DNA of 64,000 bases, from NCBI GenBank assembly GCA_019750255.1, contig JAIEOU010000004.1, positions 63,116 through 127,115 on the forward strand. The letters are read 5' to 3'. How positions within the stretch are numbered: the first letter of the stretch is position 1; every line of letters starts with the position of its first letter. Of the stretch, positions 9,059 to 64,000 are shown piece after piece. The DNA is from Patescibacteria group bacterium. GTDB lineage: Bacteria; Patescibacteriota; Minisyncoccia; Phycocordibacterales; UBA918. Both the position numbers and the translations under genes were made by a program. A model generated the notes under the pieces. It was not told where the DNA came from. It saw nothing but the letters and a program-made list of their open reading frames with translations, and did not search any database.

Positions 9059-9595
9059 ATGTCACCCGATATTCAAATCGAGGGTTTGCTTTTTTATAAG
9101 TCGACCACCCTAAAAAAACAAGCTATTATGGCCACCCTGGGTTTGAGCGGGGAGGTATTTGATGAGGCGTTGACGCGTTTACGTGAACGTCTTTTACTTG
9201 GCGCAACCCGTCTGGTTGAGACCGATACTGAGATTGGACTCATGACCGCACCTGAGCTCGCACCACTAATAGAAACGGTGCGCAGGGAAGAGCTGCGGGG
9301 CGATATCGGCAAGGCCGGTATCGAGACCCTCGCCATTATTCTTTATCGTGAGCCGGTCACGCGTGCAGAAATAGATCGTATCCGCGGCGTCAATTCTTCA
9401 TTTTCCCTACGAGCCCTGCTCATGCGCGGCCTCATCGAGCGTAAACCGGGTAGCGGCGGAGCTCACGTATTTTTCACCACCCCGGCCCTTTTGGCACACC
9501 TTGGGGTCAGCCATAAATACGAACTGCCTAATTTTTCTACCATCATGACCGCCCTTGAACAGTTTGAAGCCACCCCTGAAGTAGCAACATCATAG
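9059..9595 (+). CDS. scpB: segregation and condensation protein B
   Basis: ScpB winged-helix motifs IEGLLFY... and ETLAIILYREPVTRAEIDRIRGV. Confidence 0.8.
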   Translation: MSPDIQIEGLLFYKSTTLKKQAIMATLGLSGEVFDEALTRLRERLLLGATRLVETDTEIGLMTAPELAPLIETVRREELRGDIGKAGIETLAIILYREPVTRAEIDRIRGVNSSFSLRALLMRGLIERKPGSGGAHVFFTTPALLAHLGVSHKYELPNFSTIMTALEQFEATPEVATS

Positions 9596-9599
9596 TAAT

Positions 9600-10631
9600 A
9601 TGAACGAAGATCAGCAAGACACAACACCAGATGCAGCACCAGCGACAGGGAGCGAGGTTCGCGCCGCCCGCTTTCCTGTCACTCTTCAACTTGGTCTCCT
9701 CGGTGTATTTTTGGTGACCCTCTTTACTATTGCTGGAGGGACAGCAACCCAGTTTATGCGGTCATTAAAAGACGAGAGTCTACCGAAGGCATCCGGACAG
9801 GCCTCACCAGCCGTTGCCTTGACCGATATTGAAAGCGGACCGTTTGAAGTACCAAACGACATCGCTCTTACCGCGGACAGTGTCTACGTCTGGGACGTAG
9901 TAGGGAAGCGGGTTTTATATGAAAAAAACGGAAGCGAGGTTCTCCCGCTCGCGTCTATTACAAAACTCATGACTGCGCTCATCGCCTATGAGCTCGTGGA
10001 CGGCAATACACGCGTAACTATCCCAGGCACCGCCGCAGCGCAAGAGAGTGCGTCTGGTCTTGCCAGTGGCGAAGTCTTTAATGTCAGGCGACTAGCGGAC
10101 CTGGCACTGATTGCTTCGGCCAACGATGCAGCCTACTCACTTGCAAGTGCTGTGGGTGCACTCCTTGGCGGAGATGAAGCGACCGCACAGTTTGTCGCCG
10201 CGATGAATATACGCGCAAAGGAGCTTGGACTGTCATCGCTCGACTTTAAAAACACGACCGGGCTTGACCTCACAATGACCGAAGCTGGCGCCTACGGCAC
10301 GGCACGTGACGTCACGTTTCTTATGGAGTACATTCTGACCGAGCACCCCGCTCTCCTTGAGAGCACCACCGAATCAGCCATGCGCGTATACAACGACTCT
10401 GGCGACTTTCATGATGTGGAAAACACTAACGTACTCATAGGACAGGTTCCTAATTTAATTGGCTCAAAGACCGGCTACACCGATCTTGCTGGCGGGAACC
10501 TGACCGTAGCCTTCGACACCGGTTTTAACCGACCAGTAATTATCACCGTTTTGTCTTCATCACAGCAAGGAAGATTTGCTGACGTAGCAGCGATTGTTGA
10601 TGCGGTACAAACAGGCAAAGGTGCTGAATAA
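9600..10631 (+). CDS. D-alanyl-D-alanine carboxypeptidase (S11 family, PBP5-like)
   Basis: SxxK (SITKLMTA), SxN (SAND), KTG (SKTGYT) motifs; N-terminal TM anchor. Confidence 0.8.
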   Translation: MNEDQQDTTPDAAPATGSEVRAARFPVTLQLGLLGVFLVTLFTIAGGTATQFMRSLKDESLPKASGQASPAVALTDIESGPFEVPNDIALTADSVYVWDVVGKRVLYEKNGSEVLPLASITKLMTALIAYELVDGNTRVTIPGTAAAQESASGLASGEVFNVRRLADLALIASANDAAYSLASAVGALLGGDEATAQFVAAMNIRAKELGLSSLDFKNTTGLDLTMTEAGAYGTARDVTFLMEYILTEHPALLESTTESAMRVYNDSGDFHDVENTNVLIGQVPNLIGSKTGYTDLAGGNLTVAFDTGFNRPVIITVLSSSQQGRFADVAAIVDAVQTGKGAE

Positions 10632-10634
10632 TTT

Positions 10635-11702
10635 TTGAGTATGGAAACCGCACTGATTAAGACACTGCTTCCCGCTCTCCTGGCCTTTGCCTTTGGCATC
10701 GCTATCACACCACTGATTACTCACCACCTGTACACTTGTCGCGTCTGGAAGAAGCAGGGAGGGAAGACAACGCTCTACGGGGACACAGCTGAAGAGTTTA
10801 ACCGCCTTAAAGGTGAGGGCGAGGTAAAGACGCCGCGCATGGGCGGCCTAGTGATTGTCGCTAGTGTGGTTATCACACTGGGCACCTTATTTGTCTTGTC
10901 GGCCCTAACGACCGGAGGATTTTTTAACGATGTCTATTTCCTCAGCCGTTCACAAACCTGGATTCCGTTATCCGTCTTTATGCTCGGGGCTTTGGTGGGT
11001 TTTTTAAATGATTTCTATGACGTCACCCATGGCGGAAAAGGTCTTCGCCTGTCAATTCGACTGGCTTTCATCGCAACCCTAGCCTCACTAATTGGCTGGT
11101 GGTTTTATGCGAAGCTTGGGGTCACCAGCATCCAGATCCCCCTTGATGGAACACTGGAACTTGGGATTTTTATCATTCCATTTTTTGTACTGCTGACGTT
11201 TGCACTCTACGCAAGCGGAGTGATTGATGGCATCGACGGTCTGTCAGGCGGCGTCTTTTCTTCAATCTTTACCGCCTACTCCGCCATCGCTTTTATTGGC
11301 GAGCAGTATGATCTTGCTGCGTTTTGCGCAATGATAGCGGGCGGCATTATTGCCTTCTTATGGTTCAACATTCCCCCGGCCCGCTTTTGGATGACGGAAA
11401 CAGGCTCGATGGCACTCACGCTCACTCTGGCGGTGGTCGTAGTGATGACTGATACTCTCGGGGAAGGGAATGGTATTTTTCTGCTCGGCATAATCGGTCT
11501 GCCTCTTATAGCGACCGTCCTTTCAAACATACTCCAGATTGGGTATCGTAAAATGACAGGAAAGAAGTTGTTCCGCATCGCGCCACTCCATCACCACTTT
11601 GAAGCCATTGGCTGGCCTTCGTACAAGGTCACTATGCGGTACTGGCTAATCAGCATGATGTGTGCGCTCCTTGGAGTCGCACTGGCTATAGTACTGCCAT
11701 AA
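10635..11702 (+). CDS. mraY: phospho-N-acetylmuramoyl-pentapeptide transferase
   Basis: MraY motifs TPRMGG and NGVIDGIDGLSGG; polytopic. Confidence 0.8.
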   Translation: MSMETALIKTLLPALLAFAFGIAITPLITHHLYTCRVWKKQGGKTTLYGDTAEEFNRLKGEGEVKTPRMGGLVIVASVVITLGTLFVLSALTTGGFFNDVYFLSRSQTWIPLSVFMLGALVGFLNDFYDVTHGGKGLRLSIRLAFIATLASLIGWWFYAKLGVTSIQIPLDGTLELGIFIIPFFVLLTFALYASGVIDGIDGLSGGVFSSIFTAYSAIAFIGEQYDLAAFCAMIAGGIIAFLWFNIPPARFWMTETGSMALTLTLAVVVVMTDTLGEGNGIFLLGIIGLPLIATVLSNILQIGYRKMTGKKLFRIAPLHHHFEAIGWPSYKVTMRYWLISMMCALLGVALAIVLP

Positions 11703-38344: not shown

Positions 38345-38679
38345 TGTAACAGAATAAGGAGAAATAACAAGGGGCAAAGCCCCGAGTCTGTTTTGCTTAG
38401 GCAAACACTTCGCTGGATTCGACCCTAAAGGGATAAACAGAAATGATGAGGCTGTAAGCCGACTATATTTTGTTTACTCAAACACTTCACCAGTTACGAC
38501 CTCTGGAGGAGTAACTGGTGGTAGTGTTGTAGAATCCAGCGTTTATGTTTGTAAAAAACCAGTAGTAGCGACTTGCTCTGGCTAAATTGCAAGCATGTAA
38601 GCCGCCATATGTGTGTACACATTACCCTCACTACTTGACACTTCCACTTAAGTATGCTAAACTAAAAAAGTCTGGCGGC

Positions 38680-39130
38680 TTGGGGTACGGCATGCGCCCG
38701 CCCACCGCGTCGGAGCTACGCTCGCAACCGCTTTTTGGAAGCGACCAGCGCCACGCAGAGCCGCCAGACACCCTGTCCTCCCGACGACGAAAAGTTGGAA
38801 GGATTTCACCGCAAAGAGGAGACTGCACGCATGCGTGACTTCACCGAGAAGATCCAGGGCAACACCCCGGGGAATTATGAAACGAGCAACACCAATCTCG
38901 ATCTCGGCGCCGGCGCGGGCGCGATGCTGCTGGGCGCGACGACGGCCACGGCTCGCTGACCTGCACGCGGAGACTGACCTAGCGGAGGTCGTCACCTACA
39001 CCGCTTAGCACCACCGGATGTTCCGCCATCCCGCCGAGGTGTCTCGGTCAACCACAACTACCCGGCGAGATAGGGGGACACCACCCTTCTCGCCACCTCG
39101 TTCTTTCAATAGTTTTCCGAAGTGAGCTGG
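38680..39130. other. anomalous GC-rich intergenic segment with small SD-led ORF (38829-38957, 42 aa)
   Basis: local GC far above flanks; ORF MRDFTEKIQGNTPGNYETSNTNLDLGAGAGAMLLGATTATAR preceded by AAGAGGAG; strongly GC3-rich codons. Confidence 0.3.
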
Positions 39131-52452: not shown

Positions 52453-53991
52453 ATGAAAGACATCAGCAATACTACGAACTGGACGGCCTGCAACAACTGC
52501 TTCGGACTGGGAACGGTCCTCCGCGAACATTCTCTAAAAAAGCGTCAGCACCAAGAGTGGCAACTGGCCACCTTTTTAAGCAACCTGGCCGGCACGAACG
52601 CTCCTAAACCGCTTAGAGAGCACCGCGACACCTGTGACGCCTGTGCCGGCTCGGGACTAATCGCTACCGCTAGCGTGAGGAAGATTATTCCCGACCACTT
52701 CCCCACCGTAGCCATTATTGGCGCTGGTATCGGAGGAGTAGCTCTAGCGGTAGCCTGTCTCCACCGCCGTATTCCTTTTACACTGTATGAGCGTGACGAA
52801 AGTTTTAGCGCTCGCTCCCAGGGCTACGGCCTCACCCTACAACAAGCCAACAAGGCTATACGTGGTTTAGGTATACAGTATCTAGCTGGAGGCATTAACA
52901 CAACGAGACACGTCGTACACAACGCGGCCGGAACAGTGCTCGGTGAATGGGGTCTCCGCAAGTGGAATAAGCCGCAAGCTGAAAACAGCACGAAACGCCG
53001 CAACGTGCACGTTGCGCGGCAGACACTACGCTCTGAACTGCTCCTCCAGCTGGGTGAGCATCCACCGGTCAGCTGGGGTTACACCCTGACCGGCATCAGG
53101 AAGAATGGAAATAGCGGCACCGATCTCCACTTCACAGTTGGCGACAAGACACACATTGCAACAGCGGATCTAGTTGTCGGAGCTGATGGTATTCGTAGTT
53201 CCGTACGGAATTTTCTGATTGGTGAAGAGGCATCGCCGCTCCACTATCTTGGCTGCGTTGTCATATTAGGCATCTGTCCACTGCAATCTCTCAAACACGT
53301 CATGACTCCACTGCTCGATTCAGCAACTGTCTTCCAAACAGTCAATGGCATAGAGCGATTATATGTCATGCCGTATGACGCGGACTCCATCATGTGGCAG
53401 TTTAGTTTCCCGCTATCTGAAATCGCCGCGAAAGCATTGAGCGCACGTGGTCCTGAAGCCCTAAAAGCAGAAGCGTTGACCCGACTGCGATGGCATGACC
53501 CAATACCGCACATTATAGAGAACACCTTAGCGGCAGACATCACCGGGTATCCCGTTTACGACCGGCCAGTGCTTGACCCGCACCTACTACACGGAGCAGA
53601 AAATGCCACTCTAATGGGCGACGCTGCCCATCCAATGAGTCCATTTAAAGGTCAGGGGGCTAATCAAGCCTTACTTGATTCCCTGTTACTCGCTCGCATG
53701 ATTTCTCTCGAGTGTGGGCCCGATTCGAAGTGGCGGCAAACGGGCCTGCGCGACGCTGTACTTGCCAAGTTCGAAAAAGAAATGATCGAGCGGTCGAAGG
53801 GTAAGGTTGAGGAATCAAGGGAAGCCGCCTACTTTCTACACTCTGAGGCAGTCCTCCACGTCAGTGACGAACCAAGAGGTTATCGGACACAGACAGCAGA
53901 GACTGCCAAGCAAAGCTACCATGAGAAACAAGTCAGACTCAGTCGGACTCAGAACGCCGGAGAAGTTATTCTAAAATCGCACTCGTTTTAG
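52453..53991 (+). CDS. FAD-dependent monooxygenase (flavoprotein hydroxylase family) with N-terminal Cys-rich extension
   Basis: GxGxx[51 protein letters not shown]-terminal CNNCFGLG...CDACAGSG; start uncertain (ORF opens at 52324). Confidence 0.75.
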
Positions 53992-55219
53992 GTAATTCTT
54001 CAAACTTAGCCTTCATTGTTGGATTACCTCGGGTCAATTTTTTAATGGTGAGGTCTTGAGCTTTATCATTTGCTAGGCGTAGGTTATTTTCAGAAGACAG
54101 CAGAGCGGCTTTCGTTTTTTCTAGTTGCGTAATGGTCTTGTCGATTCCTTCGATTGCTTCACCAAATCTCCGACCCCAGAGTTCATAATTTTTTGCAAAA
54201 CCCTCCTTAAAGAGCTGTACATTATTTTCAAAGTTGGTGATATCAATATTTTGATTCTTTACCAATGCCAGTTCAGCCTTATATTTCAGTGAATTTAATG
54301 CCGCGTTTCTAAGAAGAGTGATAATTGGAATAAAGAATTGAGGACGGACGACATACATTTTGGGATACTTGTGTGACACATCAAGTATTCCCGTATTATA
54401 TAAGTCACTTTCTGGCTCTAACATAGACACAAGTACAGCAAATTCGCACCCCTTCTCAGTGCGATCTCTATCAAGCTCTCTCAGGAAGTCCTCGTTCTTC
54501 TTCTTAGTCGCAGTTTCATCTCCTTCGTTTTTCATCTCAAACATGATTGAGATAATTTCATTTCTCGACTCATCACTCTCACGATAAATATAGTCACCTT
54601 TACTCCCCGTTTTAGAATCATTATCCTTCTCAAAATACGCGCTCTGAAAGCCGGTTGCGCGCAGCTTATTAAATTCAATCTCGCAGTGCTGCTCAAGCGT
54701 CTCCCCTACCATCTTGGTTGAAAGTTTTAGCTTTAAATCTTTTCGAAGCGTTATTTCTTCGTCTTTCAACTTAATAATTTCATCTTTTGCTTTAAGTTCA
54801 GTGGTAAATTTTTCTTTTAGGTTTGTTTCGAGTAATTGCTTCTCAATGTTTTTACTTTTGAGTTCATTTGCGAGCTCGTCCCGTTCACGCTTAATCGCGT
54901 CTAACGCTTCATTGACCGCCAGTTTTTTCTCGGTTTCAGACGCTTCAATTTTGGCTTGTAGTTTAGTGACCTCTGCATCCTTATCTGCTTTTAACTTGGC
55001 AATTTCAGTATCTTTCTTTGCAATATCTACCTGCACGGCATTCTTGGTAGTAGCCTCTGCTAATTTGACGGCATTATCTTTCTCTCTTTCCAGCGAGGCA
55101 AGACGATCATGTAATTCCTTTTCAAATTCCTTATTCCTAACTTGGGCTAAGATATCAGCAAAGCCGGCGTCATCGATTTTGAACGCTTTTTTGCAGTGCG
55201 GACAAATAATTTCATTCAT
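53966..55219 (-). CDS. DUF2130-like coiled-coil protein with N-terminal zinc ribbon
   Basis: N-terminal [13 protein letters not shown] then ~250 aa of K/E-rich coiled coil and a C-terminal globular part. Confidence 0.55.
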
Positions 55220-55773
55220 AAGCAGGCATTTAGTATGGTCAATTCTCGGTGGTGTACATATTTTCCCGAAAGGTTTCTAATACCCGTACTTTCGAGCTTC
55301 ATGACTGCTTCGGAGAGAGGCATCCACTCTACTACTGCACCAGCCTTATGTTCGTCCTCTGTCATTACGGTCTCCATTTTCTCTCCCGCCACAGTTGCCC
55401 TATAGCACTGCGATATTTGCTTTTTATGCTGTTCTTTTTTGATTTCAGTTACCGTACCGATATAGGTAATATTTTCAATGTATACTCCGGCTTCTTCAAG
55501 ACATTCTCTCTTAAGTGCCACAAGTACTGACTCCCCGTCTTCGACACCTCCGCCGGGAACTTTATAGAAATTGTGTACGGAAAAATGTACTAGCGCAACA
55601 TTGCCATCCGTATCATAGATCACACACCGTGCGGCACGACGAAGTTCCATCGTCTCCGCTTCAGTAGCTGAAGCAGCTTCAAAGTTAAAAGTAATATCGA
55701 ATGTATTCATGTTCAAATTATACAGTAGATACAGTGGTTGGCAGCAATGTTCAAAACCCAGTGGATGTACCAT
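55216..55773 (-). CDS. NUDIX hydrolase
   Basis: Nudix box [24 protein letters not shown]. Confidence 0.8.
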
Positions 55774-55872
55774 TGAACCTACCGCTCAAAACCCGTCTTG
55801 CCCGACACTAACTCACAACCCACATAGAGAAAACCATGTTTTCATAAGCTACTAACCATAACTATTGATAAC

Positions 55873-56025
55873 GGGCGAGCGCTTGGCGAGCAGCGCGGCG
55901 CACCACCACTCGCGGCGAGCGTACGGAGAGGAACAATGCCTCCACGCGCTCGGCGCGTGCGAAGCACGCGATTACACGCTTTGCGAGGTGAAATGGGTTC
56001 GCGCAAAGGTAAGTATTTCATCACA
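55873..56025 (+). repeat. GC-rich repeat family, copy A (core only, ~150 bp)
   Basis: last ~100 nt identical to copy C (gagcgtacggagaggaacaatgcctccacgcgctcggcgcgtgcgaagcacgcg...ggtaagtatttcatcaca). Confidence 0.7.
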
Positions 56026-56034
56026 AAAAGCAAA

Positions 56035-56071
56035 AAAAGCACCTCCACATGGAATGTGCTTTTTGTATTTT
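56035..56071 (+). terminator. putative hairpin + U-tract immediately after repeat copy A
   Basis: aaagcac ...13 nt... gtgcttt then ttgtatttt. Confidence 0.35.
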
Positions 56072-56156
56072 GTGACCCACTAGCGTGGCTTTCAGAACTT
56101 TACAAAAATAGAAGTTATATCCAAAAAGCGGTAAGTGAATTGTCTATGGTAATGAA

Positions 56157-56741
56157 TTAGCTCTTTGCAGAAGTCAAAAAGTCCCGTAACTCGTCAATTG
56201 TTTTTGTATCACCTCGTAGTACACCATCATACACATCAACTGATATAAACTCTTTTCCAACCCCATATAGGTTCTTCCCAATAAGTTCTTCTTTCAGCAA
56301 AAGTATAGCGGTGCGGTGTTCATCACTTATGGTTAAAAGCTCTTCTGCATAGCGGTTTGTATCTCCTGTATACCACTCTGGTTTTTGTAGCCAAATGTCT
56401 AGTTTCCAAACATTGTCACCGAAATTGATGTCGGGAGACACCCAGTAACCAAAAGGTCTTTTTTCTGAATGTGTATGTGGGTAATTTACTCTATCTGCAG
56501 ATTTGAACTTTGAGGTATAGTCCAATCTTATGAGTTCACCAGAAAGCTTGGCAAAAAAATCTTTAGATACGTCATCGCTAACAACATCAATGTCCAAATC
56601 AGGATAGTTTAGAAGTTTATAGGAATAGCTTCCACCAACTGATACCTTTCCGTATTGTTCAAGAATTGGTAATAGCGTTTTTTCCAGTAGTAAGGATGCT
56701 TCGTCGTGAAGTGCGTTTTGTTTTTGTAAAAGTGGGTGCAT
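56157..56741 (-). CDS. nucleotidyltransferase (Pol beta superfamily) domain protein
   Basis: GGSYSYKLLNYPDLDIDVV = GS...D.D NTase motif; 194 aa. Confidence 0.6.
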   Translation of the reverse strand: MHPLLQKQNALHDEASLLLEKTLLPILEQYGKVSVGGSYSYKLLNYPDLDIDVVSDDVSKDFFAKLSGELIRLDYTSKFKSADRVNYPHTHSEKRPFGYWVSPDINFGDNVWKLDIWLQKPEWYTGDTNRYAEELLTISDEHRTAILLLKEELIGKNLYGVGKEFISVDVYDGVLRGDTKTIDELRDFLTSAKS

Positions 56742-56816
56742 ATACGAAAGTATATCAAAGTTCTGAACTCCCTTTAGGGTGCACTGAAATACGTTGATAA
56801 ATATAGCTCCTTATTT

Positions 56817-57070
56817 TGTGATGAAATACTTACCTTTGCGCGAACCCATTTCACCTCGCAAAGCGAGTGATTGCGTGCCTCGCACGCGCCGAGCGCGTGG
56901 TGGTTTTGTACCTCTCCGTACGCTCGACGCGGGTGGTGGCGCGCCCCGCCGCTCGCTAACCGCTCGCCCCCAACCAATGAAATATCCTTACTTTTTGATT
57001 TTTCGGTGGAGGGGTCTGGGGAGGAGCCGACAAAAAATTGAAAGGATATTTCATTGGTTGGGGGTCGCCG
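56817..57070 (-). repeat. GC-rich repeat family, copy B (full, ~255 bp, inverted relative to A and C)
   Basis: reverse complement matches copy C almost base for base; contains perfect 21-bp inverted repeat arms 56967-56987 / 57044-57064. Confidence 0.75.
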
Positions 57071-57274
57071 CTTCGTCCTCCAAAAAGCTCCGTTTTAGTC
57101 TCCATCTACTTGAGAGCCTACCACTTCGCTTTTTTACGTCCTCGCGTCGAGCGTGGCACGCTTCCCGTATACAGCGCGCGTGGTATATCGAGAGTCCGCT
57201 CACACTACGCAACCACCTCGCATAGGCACGCTCGCATCCGCTCGCGCCGCCTGCTCGTCGCTAACGCTAATGTG

Positions 57275-58579
57275 CTATTTAAACTTCGAGAATAAATTAA
57301 CTATTGATTTTAAAGTTTCATTATCAGGCACTATTTCTTTAAGTTCTTTGGCTTTAGTAATAATGTCGTCAATGTCGAGACCTTCACTTTTTTCTTGTAC
57401 GTCATTTTGACTTGATGAATTACGCTGAGGAGAATAGCCTTCAAAGGGCTCAGAGTATAAGCTGGCCATCGACTCTCGTATAAATTGACCTGTTGGAACG
57501 TCCGTTCGCTTGATTTCTTCAATCAAAAAGTTTGTATGCTCTCTCATAACCACAGCACGAGCTGCTTTAAAAGCATATTTCTCGTTTAGCCTTCTTTCTA
57601 TCCCATACTGTCTAATTGAAAAGCCTATAAGTAGCAGGAGTGGTGATGTGAGAGTGAGTCTGTAAATTAACACTCGCAACTCTGGAACCGAATCCAGACC
57701 ATTAAAAACGTACAAAAGTACAAAAGATAAACCTATGACACTGAGTACGAAAACTGCTAACCAGACAACCGCTGTAACTCGTAGCATCCTTTCACGTTGC
57801 TGAAACGCATTAGCGAAGCCGGTGTCAGTGATAAGATTGGTGATTTTTTCAACCTCATCTCGTCTACTCTTTGCAATTTCCAGATTATCCTGAATTTCGA
57901 TACGGAGTGTATCAGAAATTGTCTTATTAGCTTTAATTTCTTCTAAGTATTTCAGGCTCTCATCTCGAAAAGACTGAATTTCAATAAAAAGCGCACCGGA
58001 TTTCTTCTGTAAGTTTGTTGAGTTGGCAAGTATTGCTTCTAGGCCGGTTTTCTCATCAGAAATTTTTCCATAAACAACCAAAAAGCCCTCATAGGCTTTT
58101 TGCATCTGATCAATCTTGCTTTGAACTTGAGCTAGTAGGTCTTCTATACTCAGCAGTCTTTGCTGTGCTGCTTTCTTGAGTGTATCGATATCGTTATGAA
58201 GGCTTGTGGCGGCTGTAAGCAGTGTGCTAATCTCTCCGCTCTTTCCTTTAACTTCACCTTGTAGTGTTGCAAATTCATTAAGACCATTTTCAATACTCGC
58301 TAGCACTGATTCAGCTCTTTCGAGATCACCTTTAATGGCTGTTATATGGGTTGTTGAGTTGTTTTTAGCATTCTCAATTGAAGCTAAATAACCGCGCGCA
58401 TCTGCACTTAATTTTTCAACGTTTCCTACACTATTTTTTAGCCCTGCTTCAGCCGACTCGTACTGGGTTTGTAAGGCAGTAACCTTCTCAATCAGTTCAC
58501 TCGCCTTACTAAATTTAGCGCGTAGCTGTTTCAGTTCTTCCGTACTTATAGGTTCTGAAGTCTGATTTTCGTCGTCCAT
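57275..58579 (-). CDS. coiled-coil protein with C-terminal two-TM hairpin
   Basis: ~250 aa heptad-rich region then hydrophobic segments VVWLAVFVLSVIGLSFVLLYV and LLLLIGFSI. Confidence 0.5.
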   Translation of the reverse strand: MDDENQTSEPISTEELKQLRAKFSKASELIEKVTALQTQYESAEAGLKNSVGNVEKLSADARGYLASIENAKNNSTTHITAIKGDLERAESVLASIENGLNEFATLQGEVKGKSGEISTLLTAATSLHNDIDTLKKAAQQRLLSIEDLLAQVQSKIDQMQKAYEGFLVVYGKISDEKTGLEAILANSTNLQKKSGALFIEIQSFRDESLKYLEEIKANKTISDTLRIEIQDNLEIAKSRRDEVEKITNLITDTGFANAFQQRERMLRVTAVVWLAVFVLSVIGLSFVLLYVFNGLDSVPELRVLIYRLTLTSPLLLLIGFSIRQYGIERRLNEKYAFKAARAVVMREHTNFLIEEIKRTDVPTGQFIRESMASLYSEPFEGYSPQRNSSSQNDVQEKSEGLDIDDIITKAKELKEIVPDNETLKSIVNLFSKFK

Positions 58580-58662
58580 GGTTTATAAAATACACCAAAT
58601 ATTGACGAAGCACAAAGTTCACGTTCTGGTTATTTAGTGTTTTAATTTGTTATACTTTAGCA

Positions 58663-59343
58663 ATGATTCAGTGGATGAAAGCCACCTGGTACTATCAAGT
58701 TCTTGCTGTCGTTTTGGGTGTAGTAATTTTCTATATTGGATTTAGCGTTGGTGAGCGTACTACTGTACAAGTAACTACGGAAGTACTAACGCAAGCAACT
58801 GCTACTACCTCCGAAGCAACTACACCCACAGAGACCGGGCTAATAACTTTCAAGGGTCTTGAAATGACTGAAAAAGCGCTCCCGCCACTACCAACCCAAG
58901 AAGAATGGGACGAGGTTTTACGCGGGAGTGGTGTTTTTGAGAATAGATATAAAGAAGACGCGGTCAAATTCGGTGATATTGCAAAGCGATACCACAGTAT
59001 TAGCGACGATAACAATCCTTACATAAACGTTGAAGTTGCCGATGTTACAGGAGACGGGCAACCTGAGCAGATTGTCTCACTAAGTGGTGGCGGTTCATAC
59101 GGTGTTGACACATATGAGATTGTGCAAGGAGAAAGCATAATTGCAACCATTGATGCCTACTCAGTTGGTCGCGGTGCCTCGCTCAAACCCAATGAGTCCA
59201 AGGATGGATTTGAGATGGTGTGGTTCCGTGACGATATGTACCCAGGTGGTTATTGCTGCCCAAGTGCCCAAATGGTCACTAAATTTAAATACCACAAGGG
59301 TGAGTATATGGCAGTTAGTGAGACAGTAGAGCTATTGAACTAA
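58663..59343 (+). CDS. hypothetical membrane-anchored/secreted protein
   Basis: N-terminal TM YYQVLAVVLGVVIFYIGF, T/A-rich linker, globular C-terminus. Confidence 0.45.
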   Translation: MIQWMKATWYYQVLAVVLGVVIFYIGFSVGERTTVQVTTEVLTQATATTSEATTPTETGLITFKGLEMTEKALPPLPTQEEWDEVLRGSGVFENRYKEDAVKFGDIAKRYHSISDDNNPYINVEVADVTGDGQPEQIVSLSGGGSYGVDTYEIVQGESIIATIDAYSVGRGASLKPNESKDGFEMVWFRDDMYPGGYCCPSAQMVTKFKYHKGEYMAVSETVELLN

Positions 59344-59444
59344 CTTCAAAATTTTTTAGGTAGTGAACTATCCCTATTCAGAGCACGTGCGGTAGTGTAT
59401 GTGTAAATGAAGTGGGCTAAGGATGAGTATAGGGTGCAAATATT

Positions 59445-59807
59445 TTAAGCAGCACCACGCGAATCTGAAATAATTTTCTCCGCATCAGTAAGAACTTCTT
59501 TAATCGCATCAAAGTTCTCACATTCTTCAATTTCATCCGCAAGTACGTTTAGCCAGTGGCGCTTATCATCTGAACGCGAAACAGGTGGTGGGGTGAACCA
59601 TCCTTGAACAACCTTCGCATCATCACCATATACAGCCCAGACTAGGTTATTTGAATTGAACATACTCCAGAAACTTCCTCCAGGGGGTAACTTCCATATT
59701 CTCACTTCAGAACAATATCCATCTTTATACTTTGCAAAAACTCGGATGCAGAAATCCGAAAATTCAATCACTGCATGCTTTTCATTTATCGTTCTTATAT
59801 TTGCCAT
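59445..59807 (-). CDS. hypothetical protein (120 aa)
   Basis: ORF only. Confidence 0.4.
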   Translation of the reverse strand: MANIRTINEKHAVIEFSDFCIRVFAKYKDGYCSEVRIWKLPPGGSFWSMFNSNNLVWAVYGDDAKVVQGWFTPPPVSRSDDKRHWLNVLADEIEECENFDAIKEVLTDAEKIISDSRGAA

Positions 59808-59968
59808 TTTGTTTTAAAAATAAGTAATATCATCATTCGTTCTGACAGACTTAATCACAATACTACTATCGCCTAGGTCTATATTCAACATCATTGGTTT
59901 TACACTAACATACGGTCACAAGCCCATCAGTACCTCGCATGGGAATGCTCACACCACTCGCTCAGTAG

Positions 59969-60946
59969 TTATTTTTTTATATAGTACTTGTCGAACTCTT
60001 TAAATATCTCAGTGGAGTAGTACTTTTTAGATGTACCAGTCTGCTTAATAAAATCCAGAAATCTTTCGTCGGAATATTTTTTATCACTCTCCAGTCGCTT
60101 CTTATGTGCGTAAAATCCATTATTAGTTACAAAATCCATATATCGCTCTTGCATTTTTTTAACTAGTTCTTGATAGTCCATCGGATACTTATTTTTGAAC
60201 TGCTCTTCTACGTCAACTCTTATCTTCAATGTGGCGCTTGGGTCGTATTGCACCCTCAATGCATCCGGAGTGGAGCTTTTAGAAAACTTCGTCTCAATTT
60301 TTAAAGAAATATTATGATCCATTTTCTCATCAGACGGATACTGGCTTTCTTTTTGTAGAACCTGAGCTAGTAAATTTTTAACCTGTGTAGATTGTTTATT
60401 GACTGAAAAACTTTCCATTTCAAAGGAGTGAAAAAAAGAAATTGGCATCAAGTAAAAATTATATTGGCTTAAGTCGTTGTCAAACCACTCATTAAACATC
60501 CTCACGTAACTTTTCAAGTTTGCAGTCCCTACTTCTAAGACCTTCTTTTGAAAAAATGGGTCTTTATTTAAAAAATGAATTGCATTATCTCGTATCTCAA
60601 TTAAGAGATTAAGGTTTTCCTTTAAAATATCTGGCAATCCCAATTTTTCCATTGCTCCTCTAATTTCTATTGTCATCGGATTGAGAGAGCGGTTGAGTTT
60701 AGGATAAAAACGTTTGGACGGTGTGCCGTTTTTATTTACACTTCGCTCTTGTACATAAATTGATCGCAAATCATTAGCACTATCCTTCAAAATTTTTGAT
60801 TTTAGAAGTAATTCCCATGCGTTAATCATCAATATTGAAAATGTCTCCTCGCGATACTTGAAATCTGGTTTGTTATAAACCTCTATCGCTGAAATGGCTG
60901 AGGCAATTGATTTTTCTAGCAGTGCTTTGTTTCTCTCTTTTGCCAT
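59969..60946 (-). CDS. hypothetical protein, last gene of the C-M-R operon
   Basis: 20 bp downstream of the DUF262-HNH gene on the same strand; no secure family assignment. Confidence 0.5.
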   Translation of the reverse strand: MAKERNKALLEKSIASAISAIEVYNKPDFKYREETFSILMINAWELLLKSKILKDSANDLRSIYVQERSVNKNGTPSKRFYPKLNRSLNPMTIEIRGAMEKLGLPDILKENLNLLIEIRDNAIHFLNKDPFFQKKVLEVGTANLKSYVRMFNEWFDNDLSQYNFYLMPISFFHSFEMESFSVNKQSTQVKNLLAQVLQKESQYPSDEKMDHNISLKIETKFSKSSTPDALRVQYDPSATLKIRVDVEEQFKNKYPMDYQELVKKMQERYMDFVTNNGFYAHKKRLESDKKYSDERFLDFIKQTGTSKKYYSTEIFKEFDKYYIKK

Positions 60947-60965
60947 ATCTCTAAATTACAGCTAT

Positions 60966-62069
60966 CTACTTACCAGACTTTCGGCGGTTGCAGTCCTTGC
61001 ACAACATTTGGCAATTTTCTGCGGTAGTTTTCCCGCCCTCGTGCCATGGGGTAATGTGGTCGGCTTCCATTTCTCCAATTTCAAACTGACTACCGCATTT
61101 CGGGCAGATACCTTTCTGGCGCTCGTAGGCTTCACGTTTCATTTTGTCGTTGAAAGCGCGGATTGAAAGGTGACGCTCTTGGCGGGTAAGAACGTACGGA
61201 TAAATACCAGACTTTTTAGTAACGTCCTCGTCTTGCATCAGAGTCGAGATTTCTTCCTCTAGTTTTACAGCGTTGAGTTTCTTGCCATTGTACTCGTTGT
61301 GTAGCTCGCCCCAATTTACGCTCGCCATTTCTCGGCGGTAATTTGGAAACGTCTGGCGCACCCACGCTATAACGCTTTGAAAATACTCCCACAACTCATT
61401 GGCATTTTTGTCGTGCTGGTGTTTTGCCATGTAGCCGGCAACTTCATCGTTATTGATCCAAGAAAGTGCTGTTTCGAGGTATTCTTGGCGGATTGGTGAG
61501 CCAGTGAGTAGTGCACCACCATCGTTAGCAAGCAAGTATGCCGCACAACCAGACTTACTAAATTTGAGTTTTGCATCTGAGAGCCACTCGCCAGTGTATA
61601 CAGCGTTTTTCAGTTCTTGCGGGGTAAGTTTTTCTCCTGCAATGTTGATTATTTCAAACCAGTCCAATTTTTCTTTATCCGTTCCTTCGCAGTGGTAAAT
61701 CATTAGTTCGTAGTCTAAAATCTGCTCCTGTTCCTCTTTGGTGAGGTTATGGAACATGGCGGTACGCCCATTAAAATCTACTGAGAAGTCATTATTTACA
61801 AACTGACCGATACTGATAGTTCGCTGCTGTCCGTCGAGTACTTCAAAACTTCCTTCACTTGTCTTGACCCAATACATCACGTTGAGGGGAAAGCCTTTCT
61901 TGACAGTATCAATTACCGCATTACGTTGCTTTTCTTTGTAGACAAACTCTCGTTGGTATTTTGGGCGCACATCGAGCTTGCCACCATAGGCAACTACACC
62001 TTCCTCGTTGTTGTCTGCATAGCCAGCGACAACGTCTCGTATCTTAATTCTGTATAGTTCGATTTTCAT
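60966..62069 (-). CDS. DUF262 (ParB/GmrS-like) + HNH endonuclease fusion, GmrSD-family-like nuclease
   Basis: N-terminal DUF262 signature RPKYQREFVW...LDGQQRT; C-terminal HNH CPKCG...DHITPWHEGG...NCQMLCKDCN; ATGA overlap with upstream MTase stop. Confidence 0.8.
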   Translation of the reverse strand: MKIELYRIKIRDVVAGYADNNEEGVVAYGGKLDVRPKYQREFVYKEKQRNAVIDTVKKGFPLNVMYWVKTSEGSFEVLDGQQRTISIGQFVNNDFSVDFNGRTAMFHNLTKEEQEQILDYELMIYHCEGTDKEKLDWFEIINIAGEKLTPQELKNAVYTGEWLSDAKLKFSKSGCAAYLLANDGGALLTGSPIRQEYLETALSWINNDEVAGYMAKHQHDKNANELWEYFQSVIAWVRQTFPNYRREMASVNWGELHNEYNGKKLNAVKLEEEISTLMQDEDVTKKSGIYPYVLTRQERHLSIRAFNDKMKREAYERQKGICPKCGSQFEIGEMEADHITPWHEGGKTTAENCQMLCKDCNRRKSGK

Positions 62070-63190
62070 ACTATTTTTTTTACTTTAAGATTTTTGATAA
62101 CGATACGGTCGTACAAGCGTTGGTACGTTCCATCTTTATTTCTAATGTAAAACCGTGGGCCACCAGGAGAGTATGTTCCTTTTTGAGCAAGTTTAGTCAT
62201 GGGTTCACCAAGTGTCTTGCTAGAACCAATAATTTCAAACTGCATTGGATTGTACTTGTCTATAAAGGTGATAGGTACGCCGATGTGACCTTCATAATCC
62301 ATCGGTATGTCAGAAACTTTCGAGACTTCAATTGCATTGTAATTAAAGTATGTTGGGTATTCAGAAGGTGTATATTTTTTATAAAGTACTTGCTCTTGAA
62401 ATCTTTTAGTAGTGTCCAAATTTGTAAACCAGTAAATCCTTCCCATACTAAAATACTTAATACCGTTCTCAATCTTTTTTCTTGATTCCGTTGGTATATC
62501 GTAGTCCATTGGTACCTGAAACCATTTAGTTCCACCATTATCATAACCAAGCCACAATTTGTTATCTTTGATGTAGTTGAAGGTTTCTTTATATGTTATA
62601 GCGTTTTGATCACCAAGAATTAAAAACTTTTTGTTGTATTCCATTAATTGAGCCACGTATTCACGAAATAGTGAGAAGGGTGGATTTGTAACAACAATAT
62701 CTGCCTGCTTAAGCAGCTCAATACTTTCTTCGCTCCTGAAGTCACCCTCACTCTCCATCGGAGACCATTCGTTATTTTTGTTTGCTTTAAGTTGTTCAGC
62801 AATATCGCGTAGGTCATAAGCGCAATCACCATCCAAATCGTGAACTTCGTTAATTATAAACTTGTTTGCTGTAGCTTTTGGGCGACCTTTCGGAGTCTCA
62901 AGTACTTGAACACCACCAAACAAGTCAATTTGTGTATTCGCAATGGGTGATGGCTTATAACTCGTTGCGATGAGACGCTTAAGTCCTAATGCATTAAAAT
63001 TACCTGCAAAGTACTTAAAAAAGTTGCTCTCAAACGGGTCGTCACAATTACAGTAGACGACCTTTCCTCGAAACTGCTCTTTGTAATGTTTGAGTTCCTT
63101 TTCAATATCAATGAGTTGAGTATAAAACTCATCTTTCTTTGCTTGTCCGGCCTTATTAAGACCCATATTTAAAGTTGGCTTTGTGCTCAT
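62066..63190 (-). CDS. N6-adenine DNA methyltransferase (EcoRI-methylase-like family)
   Basis: DIVVTNPPFS (motif IV NPPF); N-terminal KDEFYTQ...VVYCNCDDP resembling EcoRI-MTase family N-terminus (recollection, not searched). Confidence 0.75.
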   Translation of the reverse strand: MSTKPTLNMGLNKAGQAKKDEFYTQLIDIEKELKHYKEQFRGKVVYCNCDDPFESNFFKYFAGNFNALGLKRLIATSYKPSPIANTQIDLFGGVQVLETPKGRPKATANKFIINEVHDLDGDCAYDLRDIAEQLKANKNNEWSPMESEGDFRSEESIELLKQADIVVTNPPFSLFREYVAQLMEYNKKFLILGDQNAITYKETFNYIKDNKLWLGYDNGGTKWFQVPMDYDIPTESRKKIENGIKYFSMGRIYWFTNLDTTKRFQEQVLYKKYTPSEYPTYFNYNAIEVSKVSDIPMDYEGHIGVPITFIDKYNPMQFEIIGSSKTLGEPMTKLAQKGTYSPGGPRFYIRNKDGTYQRLYDRIVIKNLKVKKIV

Positions 63191-63191
63191 G

Positions 63192-63389
63192 TTACTTTTT
63201 CAAAAGGTCGTCTACCTTAACTTCGAGCGCGGTGGCAATTTTGGAAAGAGAGTTAATGGTGGGGTTTTGATTCGTGCCGTCCTCAATCTTCACAACGGTG
63301 CTAAGTGACACATCAGCAAGCCTGGCAACCCTTTCGAGTGAGTAACCTTTTTCGGCACGAATCTTTTTTATGTTACTCGCTATGCTCAT
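63192..63389 (-). CDS. XRE-family HTH transcriptional regulator (controller C-protein-like, 65 aa)
   Basis: IKKIRAEKGYSLERVARLADVSLSTVVKIEDG helix-turn-helix; stop 1 nt before MTase ATG. Confidence 0.8.
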   Translation of the reverse strand: MSIASNIKKIRAEKGYSLERVARLADVSLSTVVKIEDGTNQNPTINSLSKIATALEVKVDDLLKK

Positions 63390-63414
63390 AATCAGTATTG
63401 TGTAATTTGATACT

Positions 63415-63424
63415 AGTATTATAA
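63415..63424. promoter_or_regulatory. palindrome ATACTAGTAT overlapping a TATAAT-like -10, candidate C-box/operator for the XRE-MTase operon
   Basis: seen in sequence 26-35 bp upstream of the XRE start codon (minus strand). Confidence 0.35.
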
Positions 63425-63491
63425 TACAAAGTATGTACTCCTTATATCTTAATCATACGGGACTTTGGAGCATTTGCAATTTTACGGACTC

Positions 63492-63749
63492 ATTGCGGCG
63501 ACCCCCAACCAATGAAATATCCTTTCAATTTTTTGTCGGCTCCTCCCCAGACCCCTCCACCGAAAAATCAAAAAGTAAGGATATTTCATTGGTTGGGGGC
63601 GAGCGGTTAGCGAGCGGCGGGGCGCGCCACCACCCGCGTCGAGCGTACGGAGAGGAACAATGCCTCCACGCGCTCGGCGCGTGCGAAGCACGCGATTACA
63701 CGCTTTGCGAGGTGAAATGGGTTCGCGCAAAGGTAAGTATTTCATCACA
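63492..63749 (+). repeat. GC-rich repeat family, copy C (full, ~255 bp)
   Basis: perfect 21-bp inverted repeat arms 63502-63522 / 63579-63599 with 56-nt spacer, then core identical to copy A. Confidence 0.75.
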
Positions 63750-63911
63750 CATCGCTACTTCCTCGGAAGATAGCACCGAAGCAGGGCGCGGCGTAGCCGC
63801 GCCCACCGAGCAGAAACCGCCCCGCGCCATGCTGGCGCTCACGAAAACGGAGGGTGGGCGCTGCGCTAAATGAGTCCTCAATAGTTTTGTCGCTTTTGAA
63901 TCTAAAATTGT

Positions 63912-64000
63912 ATGTCCAAACCAAAATATTTTCTCTACGCCCGCAAAAGTACCGAAGACGATGACAAACAGGTTATGTCTATCGAGGCACAGCTCTTTGA
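63912..64000 (+). CDS. serine recombinase (resolvase/invertase or large serine recombinase), N-terminal fragment, truncated by window end
   Basis: MSKPKYFLYARKSTEDDDKQVMSIEAQL matches the catalytic N-terminus pattern YARVST..Q...S[IL]EAQ with nucleophile Ser. Confidence 0.55.
   Translation, partial: MSKPKYFLYARKSTEDDDKQVMSIEAQLF

Follow-up and report, generated by a model that had tools for sequence, protein, structure and literature searches.

GC-rich inverted repeats beside a serine recombinase gene in a Patescibacteria genome are probably attachment-site arms of a small element targeting tRNA-Glu

We analysed a stretch of 64,000 nucleotides (nt) from the genome assembly of a Patescibacteria group bacterium (GCA_019750255.1, contig JAIEOU010000004.1, positions 63,116 to 127,115; hereafter the window), in which three copies of a GC-rich repeat, A, B and C, lie close to the start of a serine recombinase gene. 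The repeat, which we name U, very probably forms the long left arm (P arm) of the site at which a small integrative element attaches. A large serine recombinase (LSR) would move this element, with the extreme 3′ end of a tRNA-Glu gene as the target. Our confidence is high as regards this identity of the repeat, and low to moderate as regards the purpose of a second attachment site inside the element and what drives inversion of its segments. The parts of the element that lie in the window, together with copy A, are as follows in our reading.

55864–56028, forward strand: copy A, a truncated U arm consisting of the GC-rich core and a P-type half-site, without the hairpin
56814–57071, reverse strand: copy B, the distal U arm, with an attR-type junction (U, core, chromosome)
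63495–63749, forward strand: copy C, the proximal U arm of an internal, inverted attP-like site
63750–63891, forward strand: V arm, which repeats the 3′ end of the LSR gene in inverted orientation
63912–64000, forward strand: start of the LSR gene (first 29 codons), running to the window edge

Three repeat copies with one common end

A repeat search of the region from 54 to 64 kb showed that B (56817–57071) and C (63495–63749) are inverted copies, 97% identical over 255 nt. A (55864–56025) and C (63588–63749) are direct copies (162 nt, 93% identical); the inverted match between A and B covers 165 nt at 88% identity. A block of 108 nt is identical between A and C, where zero such matches are expected by chance. 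Copies B and C are built of a 98-nt hairpin (30-bp arms and a 38-nt loop, at 56967–57064 in B and 63502–63599 in C), a GC-rich core region of about 150 nt and a common end; A has the core region and the common end, and the hairpin is missing. All three share one endpoint, ...GGTAAGTATTTCATCACA, and past its TCACA they are unrelated. This short core lies at 56021–56025 in A and, as TGTGA, at 56817–56821 in B, and in C it closes a P-type half-site, GTTCG...TCACA, at 63721–63749. An initial annotation of the window had placed and oriented the three copies as we find them, with coordinates that differ from ours by at most 9 nt. Neither a scan of the window nor a later profile search found a fourth copy in the whole 64 kb.

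The differences among the copies are not evenly spread. The 11 differences between A and C all fall within 63592–63639, and the last 110 nt are 100% identical, whereas the 8 differences between B and C all fall within 63656–63700. Copy C is thus a mosaic whose left part equals B and whose right part equals A. If differences were spread uniformly, the chance of such clustering would be about 4 x 10−6 for A/C (the left 52 of 162 positions) and about 3 x 10−4 for B/C (the right 94 of 255). Because the two sets of differences segregate by side, we conclude that the copies have exchanged sequence. The hybrid junction in copy C is 16 nt wide (63640–63655), so an assembler using a word length above 18 nt cannot invent the mosaic without supporting reads.

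The recombinase and its family

The open reading frame (ORF) that starts MSKPKYFLYARKSTEDDDKQVMSIEAQLF begins at 63912, 163 nt past copy C. The initial annotation gave this distance correctly and described the gene as lying outside the repeat-bounded segment; in our reading the element itself includes copy C and the recombinase gene and extends up to a tRNA junction. Alone, the 29-residue fragment has no Pfam or PDB match. We searched with these 29 residues plus one upstream codon, added for minimum length, and the query matched 146 representative proteins, mostly short pieces from contig ends. The sole near-full-length match, P0172, is a protein of 530 amino acids that is 97% identical to the fragment over its 29 residues and has Resolvase, Recombinase and zinc-ribbon (Zn_ribbon_recom) domains. 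From the length and domains of P0172, the gene very probably encodes an LSR and not a small invertase of the Hin/Gin/Min type.

P0172 has matches at E ≤ 1e-50 in at least 5,892 protein clusters, and every match for which the source names an organism comes from Patescibacteria (the named hosts are Magasanikbacteria, Taylorbacteria, Yonathbacteria, Minisyncoccia and Paceibacterota). To describe the family we used a metagenome scan with P0172, from whose matches, at least 596 in number, we took 80 loci (L018–L097). These match P0172 over about 500 residues or more, contig permitting, and the members examined are mostly about 510–580 residues long with Recombinase and zinc-ribbon domains.

The repeat is one arm of a recombinase-linked layout

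A hidden Markov model (HMM) built from copies A, B and C finds the repeat 5′ of the LSR gene in dozens of these loci, with E-values down to 1e-24. The typical match is on the LSR strand and ends 150–300 nt before the ATG; often a second, inverted U copy lies 2–7 kb further upstream, where the flank allows. The model found nothing elsewhere in the window and nothing in 17 non-LSR loci. This linkage bears out the earlier proposal that the repeats are related to recombination and tied to the serine recombinase.

Members of the family share one order: first the flank, then inverted U, cargo, U, core, V, the body of the LSR gene, inverted V, core and, on the other strand, a tRNA gene. V duplicates the final ~130 nt of the LSR gene in inverted form. 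By self-comparison of the loci, the V arms form an inverted repeat (IR1) in 67 of the 80 loci, mostly 84–155 nt long and 85–100% identical, with one arm between the U repeat and the ATG and the other inverted within the 3′ coding end of the LSR gene. The U arms, equivalent to B and C, form a second inverted repeat (IR2), which is complete in 12 of the 24 loci that have at least 3 kb of upstream flank; its arms are 212–330 nt long and 93–100% identical, and the cargo between them is 2.1–7.0 kb. About seven more contigs open inside a distal U arm. The proximal U and V abut, with an overlap of 4–8 nt. In all, 19 contigs start in a U or V arm and 7 end in one, and because contigs break inside the arms many LSR proteins in databases are fragments.

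The window fits this layout at both of its U arms. Copy B matches the distal IR2 arm of the 12 complete related elements in position and orientation. Beyond copy C, positions 63813–64000 match the start of locus L022 (91%), and 63786–63891 match the 3′ end of the L022 LSR gene in reverse. The minus strand of 63696–63911, comprising V and the end of U, encodes a peptide ending ...LSSEEVAMCDEILTFARTHFTSQSV before a stop codon, which aligns with residues 473–512 of P0172, its C-terminus (E = 1e-4); its reading frame passes through the core (ATG TGT GAT) and on into U. Copy C with this V arm is thus a complete, inverted U-core-V site of the kind that joining the two ends of the element would produce.

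An alignment of 18 diverse U ends has four conserved sequence blocks. RNAalifold, applied to the ~180 nt nearest the core in these 18 sequences, gave 4 invariant pairs and no covariation, the inner hairpin being mostly outside this stretch. That hairpin is the only part of U whose position is conserved and whose pairing is kept as its sequence changes. U diverges quickly between elements, while the two arms within an element stay 93–100% identical.

tRNA targets and half-site geometry

The family layout predicted a tRNA gene just past the LSR gene, and an ARAGORN search found such genes: in 57 of the 69 loci that have downstream flank, a tRNA on the opposite strand overlaps or abuts the LSR 3′ end. 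The targets are as follows.

tRNA-Glu: 19 loci
tRNA-Ala: 10 loci
tRNA-Ser: 10 loci
tRNA-Arg: 9 loci
tRNA-Ile: 4 loci
tRNA-Val, tRNA-Lys, tRNA-Met, tRNA-Leu and tRNA-Tyr: 1 locus each

The closest relatives of the LSR gene in the window use tRNA-Glu. The LSR reading frame continues through the core into the tRNA antisense (for example, L019 2225–2264), and the codons of the LSR tail (...MC..GNRT..., P0172 residues 510–530) come from the strand complementary to the tRNA acceptor and T arms. Since the frame spans the core, integration rewrites the last ~15–20 codons of the recombinase gene.

In 36 loci we compared the element-side junction with the tRNA-side junction, and the two are identical only from the core onward. 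The U end contains a T-loop-like GTTCG motif inside the conserved block AAGTGGGTTCGCGCAAAGGTTAGTATTTC, and in 32 of the 36 loci this motif sits exactly 6 bp farther from the core than the GTTCG/A of the tRNA; at least two of the 4 exceptions are pattern mis-picks. In the window the distance from GTTCG to the core is 24 nt, compared to 18 nt in the tRNA-Glu gene of locus L002. The far end of the element carries a tRNA-like sequence with a spacing 6 nt longer, and not a tRNA fragment. In the LI integrase system the motif for the zinc-ribbon domain is the same in attP and attB and lies 5 bp nearer the centre in attB (PMC3783163). The 6-bp offset matches this rule, which makes the U end a P-type half-site and the tRNA T arm a B-type half-site.

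One LSR gene in the set, that of L056, is composite in its similarity when set against L059 and L063. Over its first 1.55 kb it resembles the group that targets tRNA-Ser (94%), and over its last 640 nt, including a tRNA-Ile gene, it resembles L059 (99.8%). Either a natural exchange of the C-terminal/V module changed the target here, or the contig is chimeric.

The distal junction lies where relatives have tRNA-Glu

Outside copy B the window contains a nucleotidyltransferase (NTase) gene and its upstream region.

56157–56741, reverse strand: gene for a 194-residue NTase, between copies A and B, in chromosomal flank
56742–56816, reverse strand: B′ flank, the conserved region upstream of the NTase gene, which in relatives follows the tRNA-Glu 3′ end

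Homology between the window and four loci that carry an NTase homologue (L001, L002, L005 and L010) runs from 56068 to exactly 56821, a position within the TCACA core of B. Where the window has this copy, L002 and L005/6 have a tRNA-Glu gene; in these two lineages the NTase gene comes directly after tRNA-Glu, with att-like sequence on both sides. Because the homology ends at 56821 and relatives have tRNA-Glu there, the outer end of B is a recombination junction. The empty site in relatives reads ...CCCCGTAAGGTCACA/AAATAAG-NTase and the window reads ...GTATTTCATCACA/AAATAAG-NTase. Written across the crossover, the attR of the window is ...CATCACA/AAATAAGGAGC and the empty site of L002 is ...GGTCACA/AAATAAGAAAC; the two share the short core alone.

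These comparisons also settle the status of the NTase gene, which had been taken as a cassette bracketed by A and B. It is chromosomal flank: we rejected a mobile cassette because in relatives the gene is free of such repeats and adjoins tRNA-Glu, and the U repeat is absent from the loci fetched for NTase homologues. Nor is it a constant partner of the LSR, as none of the 80 LSR loci has an NTase homologue. The family has 78 homologues in Kaiserbacteria and other Parcubacteria, with 45–90% conservation across Parcubacteria, and no Pfam or PDB sequence match. Its AlphaFold2 model (pLDDT 90) gives Foldseek matches to TUTase, Cid1, OAS and MenT, and on this predicted structure the protein is a Pol-beta-fold nucleotidyltransferase.

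In some genomes the neighbourhood of this gene is itself variable. In L005, 2.5 tandem copies of a 79-nt unit lie just upstream of tRNA-Glu (9491–9689) and a second, partial tRNA-Glu 3′ end lies 130 nt downstream of the gene (9899–9925); these are signs of past integration at a hot spot. An IS200-like Y1 transposase gene is present beside the NTase gene in one of two otherwise matching contigs (L007 1176–1505, compared with L006), and in L001 (5005–6430) CBASS-like SMODS and HORMA genes and a methylase gene adjoin it. The Y1 insertion, the CBASS-like genes and the restriction-modification cargo of the window together suggest that in some genomes the NTase neighbourhood is a variable, defence-rich hot spot.

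Copy A as a probable relic of an older element

Most of the window is ordinary chromosome (with GltX, CysS and DnaB) and has a GC content of about 53%; searches of the window gave neither a tRNA gene nor an Rfam match. At 53966 the GC content falls to about 40%, and the sequence is AT-rich from there onward. Between this point and the NTase gene lie the following features.

53966–55219, reverse strand: DUF2130 gene (Pfam), AT-rich
55216–55773, reverse strand: NUDIX gene (Pfam), AT-rich
56029–56064, reverse strand: spacer that separates copy A from the next feature and contains a hairpin with a T-run after it
56065–56095, reverse strand: tRNA-end-like motif GTTCTGAAAGCCACGCTAGTGGGTCACAAAATAC, 3′ of the NTase gene

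The DUF2130 and NUDIX genes are transcribed away from copy A, and the cargo between B and C is likewise transcribed away from copy C, as it is in most of 19 other elements. The tRNA-end-like motif (GGGTCACAAAA) is kept 3′ of the NTase gene in L001, L002, L005 and L010, and it stands in for the tRNA beside the LSR 3′ end in two loci of the recombinase family, L061 (~11520–11560) and L074 (~1300–1345), neither of which has an NTase homologue, a point that bears on how copy A is read. We take 56065–56095 to be a secondary or relic attachment site. Because copy A faces this motif and the genes run away from it, copy A would probably be what survives of an older element, namely its internal U arm, the recombinase module having been lost, and DUF2130 and NUDIX probably the cargo of that decayed element.

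The tRNA-end-like motif is 30 nt long, GTTCTGAAAGCCACGCT.GTGGGTCACA (also GTTCTGAAAGCCACGCT..GGGTCACA), and trails the NTase gene everywhere. The spacer hairpin with its T-run looks like a terminator of the NTase gene, and is absent from the list given by our consensus scan.

Inversion between the arms

The initial annotation suggested that the segment between B and C may be inverted or mobilised. Among the relatives, both orientations of an arm-flanked segment do occur in nature; within the window itself the flip is not seen. Loci L088 and L090, from two samples, are 100% identical over the 2,865 nt of U, V, LSR gene and tRNA, yet their 2.1 kb cargo runs in opposite directions in the two, at 99.95% identity. 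Comparisons of L030/L034 with L031 and of L024 with L076 imply older flips. The arm identity of 93–100% within elements implies frequent exchange. These observations, together with the mosaic structure of copy C, lead us to conclude that inversion between arms happens. Either the LSR, working at the cores, or homologous recombination within the arms would be its agent.

The coding effect that we see lies in the LSR gene: V and the end of U provide an alternative C-terminal tail, and either orientation of the LSR body would retain an intact reading frame. The cargo operon of the window has one promoter-like site (63479–63452, by consensus scan), and because it lies inside the B–C segment, flipping would have no evident effect on expression of the operon.

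A model for the element

In the model that we propose, the element would run from the outer end of B, through C and the LSR gene, to a tRNA junction past the end of the window. Copy B would be its distal end, of attR type, where relatives have the tRNA-Glu 3′ end, and copy C with 63750–63891 would be a complete internal, inverted attP-like site (U, core, V) just upstream of the LSR gene. A second V arm and an attL junction with tRNA-Glu are predicted ~1.6 kb beyond the window end. The LSR would read the GTTCG/A of the tRNA T-loop as a B-type half-site and the same motif in the U end, 6 bp further out, as a P-type half-site, with crossover in the shared core (TCACA in the window). These elements would then amount to a plain LSR element with an inverted U-core-V inserted between cargo and LSR gene. 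The free form would be a circle with two inverted attP-like sites, and integration via one of them would give the layout seen. The cargo and the LSR body each lie between near-identical inverted arms, so each could flip. If the model is right, the distal junction and the internal site share a P arm, and the tRNA junction and the internal site share V.

We put forward a broader proposal with considerable doubt: that these elements form a class of minimal mobile elements found throughout Patescibacteria, in which the LSR uses the universal tRNA T-loop as an attB half-site and each element carries two inverted attP copies, and that the twin-site design, along with the conserved hairpin and blocks of U, is not a by-product but a new way for the element to regulate itself or to become re-established once DNA has been taken up. 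If there are indeed twin attP sites, each inversion would regenerate its own substrates, and the LSR could go on inverting the cargo and its own gene without limit, no directionality factor being needed.

Several observations weigh against parts of this model. The right end of the element is a prediction, because the window holds 29 LSR codons and neither the second V arm nor the tRNA. The evidence for inversion comes from sequences of family relatives and not from the copy in the window, and the L088/L090 flip rests on two assemblies through a repeat of ~148 nt, with the assembly caveat that this brings. Classical serine integrases, which integrate in one direction and need a directionality factor for excision, pair attP only with attB, and by this rule an internal attP is not expected to react with attL or attR; RecA-type recombination could account both for the flips and for the homogenisation of the arms. 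U is about ten times the length of a half-site, and its conserved blocks and hairpin are left unexplained by the model. The older element represented by copy A is something we infer from layout, and the tRNA-end-like motif in L061 and L074 has a P-like spacing (23 nt) and not a tRNA-like one. Lastly, in eight contigs an inverted U, instead of a tRNA, follows the LSR gene. These may be circular forms or artefacts of graph paths; L085, whose arms are 73% alike, is the only clearly unambiguous case, in that a path through a collapsed repeat cannot explain it. We rejected L037 and L067 as proven circles, since they have no terminal overlap and the path through their repeat is ambiguous.

Other readings of the repeats

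The alternative that survives best, which we nevertheless regard as unlikely, is a programmed multi-inversion switch of the Gin/Min or shufflon type that phase-varies the defence cargo and the NTase segment. Neighbouring repeat copies alternate in orientation, as such a switch would have them, and the L088/L090 cargo flip, the older implied flips, the 93–100% arm identity and an LSR frame that stays intact in either orientation of the body are all compatible with it. The enzymes of the family argue otherwise, being integrase-type LSRs of ~530 residues and not invertases of ~190, as does a layout anchored at a tRNA 3′ end with half-sites of attP/attB-type geometry. Furthermore, the promoter-like site of the cargo lies inside the segment, the NTase segment is ordinary chromosomal flank, and the cargo is variable across the family and includes housekeeping-type enzymes. 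As for a resemblance to shufflons, the recombinase is of the serine type and not a tyrosine recombinase like Rci of R64, which acts at 19-bp sfx sites in alternative pilV ends, and the arms encode no alternative protein ends except the LSR tail.

The initial annotation also raised a composite mobile element with long terminal inverted repeats. We give much less weight to this reading, in which B and C would bound a non-autonomous composite transposon (56814–63749) that a recombinase encoded outside it mobilises in trans. In its favour, the 255-nt arms are 97% identical with outward-facing ends, and there is no transposase gene inside. Against it, the sequences next to the arms (...CCTTATTT and CATCGCTA...) show no target-site duplication; the proximal arm of every related locus is joined to V and the LSR gene in a unit that ends at a tRNA, and in the examined loci we found no U-cargo-U unit away from an LSR. 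On the attachment-site reading only B is a true end, and C is an internal site.

Hardly more promising, and in our view slightly less so, is a dispersed REP/MITE-like element or structured non-coding RNA (ncRNA) gene that lies near the LSR gene by chance. The repeat is GC-rich, a single copy folds better than shuffled sequence (z = −5), and related genomes hold other intergenic GC-rich repeats. A simple REP/MITE family is contradicted by the distribution of the copies: three lie within 8 kb and none in the other 56 kb of the window, the part of the source genome that was read, and in the loci examined elsewhere they lie only beside LSR genes, a strict linkage across the family. The exact repeat blocks have no match in 185,579 genomes, JGI metagenomes or viral contigs, these exact-word searches being empty because the repeat family diverges too fast, and a megablast search of the region against plasmids and phages gave no match. 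We also rejected a structured RNA, riboswitch or guide RNA of the omega/bridge type, as there is no Rfam match for the repeat and no covariation. An aberrant tRNA or tmRNA gene was rejected because ARAGORN found no tRNA gene in the window and tRNA-likeness is limited to the last ~35 nt, and a coding fragment because ORFs across the repeats have no Pfam match. The GC-rich flanks at 57072–57275 and 63750–63911 were considered as further repeat copies and have no significant similarity to them.

Least likely of all is a layout created by contig mis-joins at the repeat: the source is a metagenome-assembled genome (MAG), and 19 related contigs start and 7 end inside an arm, but dozens of independent contigs from many samples, including some of hundreds of kb, repeat this order and orientation, the window's arms differ from each other at 8–19 positions, and the mosaic junction needs reads with both variants within 18 nt.

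Cargo

The 6.4 kb, AT-rich segment between B and C carries seven genes, and the earlier description of it as a mobile-element cargo that includes defence genes holds.

57072–57274, reverse strand: GC-rich 3′ untranslated region (UTR) of the next gene, with no significant similarity to the repeat or to V
57275–58579, reverse strand: 434-residue coiled-coil/membrane protein
58663–59343, forward strand: 226-residue protein
59445–59807, reverse strand: 120-residue protein
59969–60946, reverse strand: DUF3644/PDC-S19 (Pfam, PADLOC)
60966–62069, reverse strand: GmrSD_N+HNH type II nuclease (Pfam, PADLOC)
62066–63190, reverse strand: EcoRI-like N6 methylase (Pfam, PADLOC)
63192–63389, reverse strand: helix-turn-helix (HTH) control protein (C-protein; Pfam, PADLOC)

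Cargo differs among elements of the family. It includes type II and type III restriction-modification systems, a reverse transcriptase and DUF4411, while some genes are metabolic (aminotransferase, GTP cyclohydrolase II and dehydrogenases). We regard the elements as general carriers, defence genes being present in several, and not as a dedicated defence switch. No conserved second gene or directionality factor is apparent among the family cargos.

The 434-residue protein has 64 homologues across Patescibacteria. Positions 57214–57275 are conserved alongside its gene in L013–L017, and the GC-rich 3′ stretch GAGCAGGCGGCGCGAGCG..GCGAGCGTGCCTATGCGAGGTG is kept in relatives at 70% identity.

Relation to known systems

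The closest counterparts are serine-integrase elements (A118/LI, Bxb1, phiC31 and the CcrAB recombinases of SCCmec), which share with the LSRs of this family the Resolvase, Recombinase and zinc-ribbon domains, in proteins of about 450–700 residues, and a short core. They also share an attP motif that is displaced outward relative to attB by about half a helical turn, 6 bp here and 5 bp in LI (PMC3783163). SCC elements at rlmH likewise insert at the 3′ end of a conserved gene, and in the window a second element seems to have left a relic next to the first. The present family differs in its target, a tRNA 3′ end and T-loop with at least 10 tRNA species family-wide, and in being minimal, with the LSR as the sole shared gene plus 2–7 kb of cargo. 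It differs further in having a complete second attP-like site, inverted, inside the element, and long arms (U 212–330 nt, V ~130 nt), and in an LSR frame that crosses the core so that its last ~15–20 codons are rewritten, with no conserved directionality factor seen.

The tycheposons of Prochlorococcus, whose hosts belong to a different phylum, are likewise small cargo elements of streamlined genomes, with tRNA targets, pile-up at the same site and decayed remnants (10.1101/2020.12.28.424599). Their cargo consists of defence and niche genes, 910 of 937 tycheposons use tyrosine recombinases and a minority encode large serine recombinases, and partial tRNA direct repeats mark the ends (10.1101/2020.12.28.424599). 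A term search of that preprint text gave no internal inverted att site and no inverted repeats overlapping the recombinase (10.1101/2020.12.28.424599). Compared to tyrosine-integrase islands of the Islander class, the recombinase here is of the serine type and there is no displaced true tRNA 3′ fragment.

Serine invertases are proteins of ~190 residues with a C-terminal HTH domain. Aided by an enhancer, they recombine sites of ~26 bp and thereby switch promoters or the C-termini of proteins. Like Hin, Gin, Cin and Min (p15B), the system here has a serine recombinase beside segments bounded by inverted sites, and several adjacent segments are possible; it differs in its integrase-type enzyme, in arms of hundreds of nt and in being an integrated mobile element. 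The inferred circle, with two inverted repeats that contain sites and two unique segments, one of which encodes the recombinase, is analogous in layout to the FLP/FRT system of the yeast 2-micron plasmid. Flp is a tyrosine recombinase, and the 2-micron plasmid replicates autonomously and does not integrate. Archaeal integrases of the SSV type resemble the present LSRs in that crossover occurs inside the recombinase gene and integration alters its frame. In SSV a tyrosine integrase gene is split in two, whereas here the C-terminal tail of a serine LSR is exchanged and a tRNA-like sequence in U provides the alternative tail.

In full-text searches of the literature we found no description of LSR elements in Patescibacteria, of recognition of a tRNA T-loop by a serine integrase, or of an internal inverted attP. 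The window thus contains what is apparently an undescribed kind of LSR integrative element, with new target logic and a new twin-site architecture. To our knowledge, few mobile elements have been described in bacteria of the Candidate Phyla Radiation (CPR), in which elements of this family carry restriction-modification and other accessory genes. A puzzling repeat layout is in this way explained as the signature of a very large family, whose clusters are annotated "recombinase family protein". Its recognition rule is simple, a T-loop motif plus a 6-bp offset between element and target; it applies to at least ten tRNA targets and offers many natural attP/attB pairs for studies of serine-integrase specificity and for engineering. 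The internal inverted site, and an LSR gene that overlaps its own site and the tRNA, two features of which we found no earlier description, raise the question of how directionality and expression are controlled. As the repeats often break CPR contigs, recognising the architecture should aid their assembly and annotation.

Far from the element, positions 38650–39120 of the window are a GC-rich stretch of ~470 nt, in most of which 120-nt windows have a GC content of at least 64%. Its ORFs have no Pfam match and it has no Rfam match at the gathering threshold; the stretch could be an unannotated RNA or a decayed gene.

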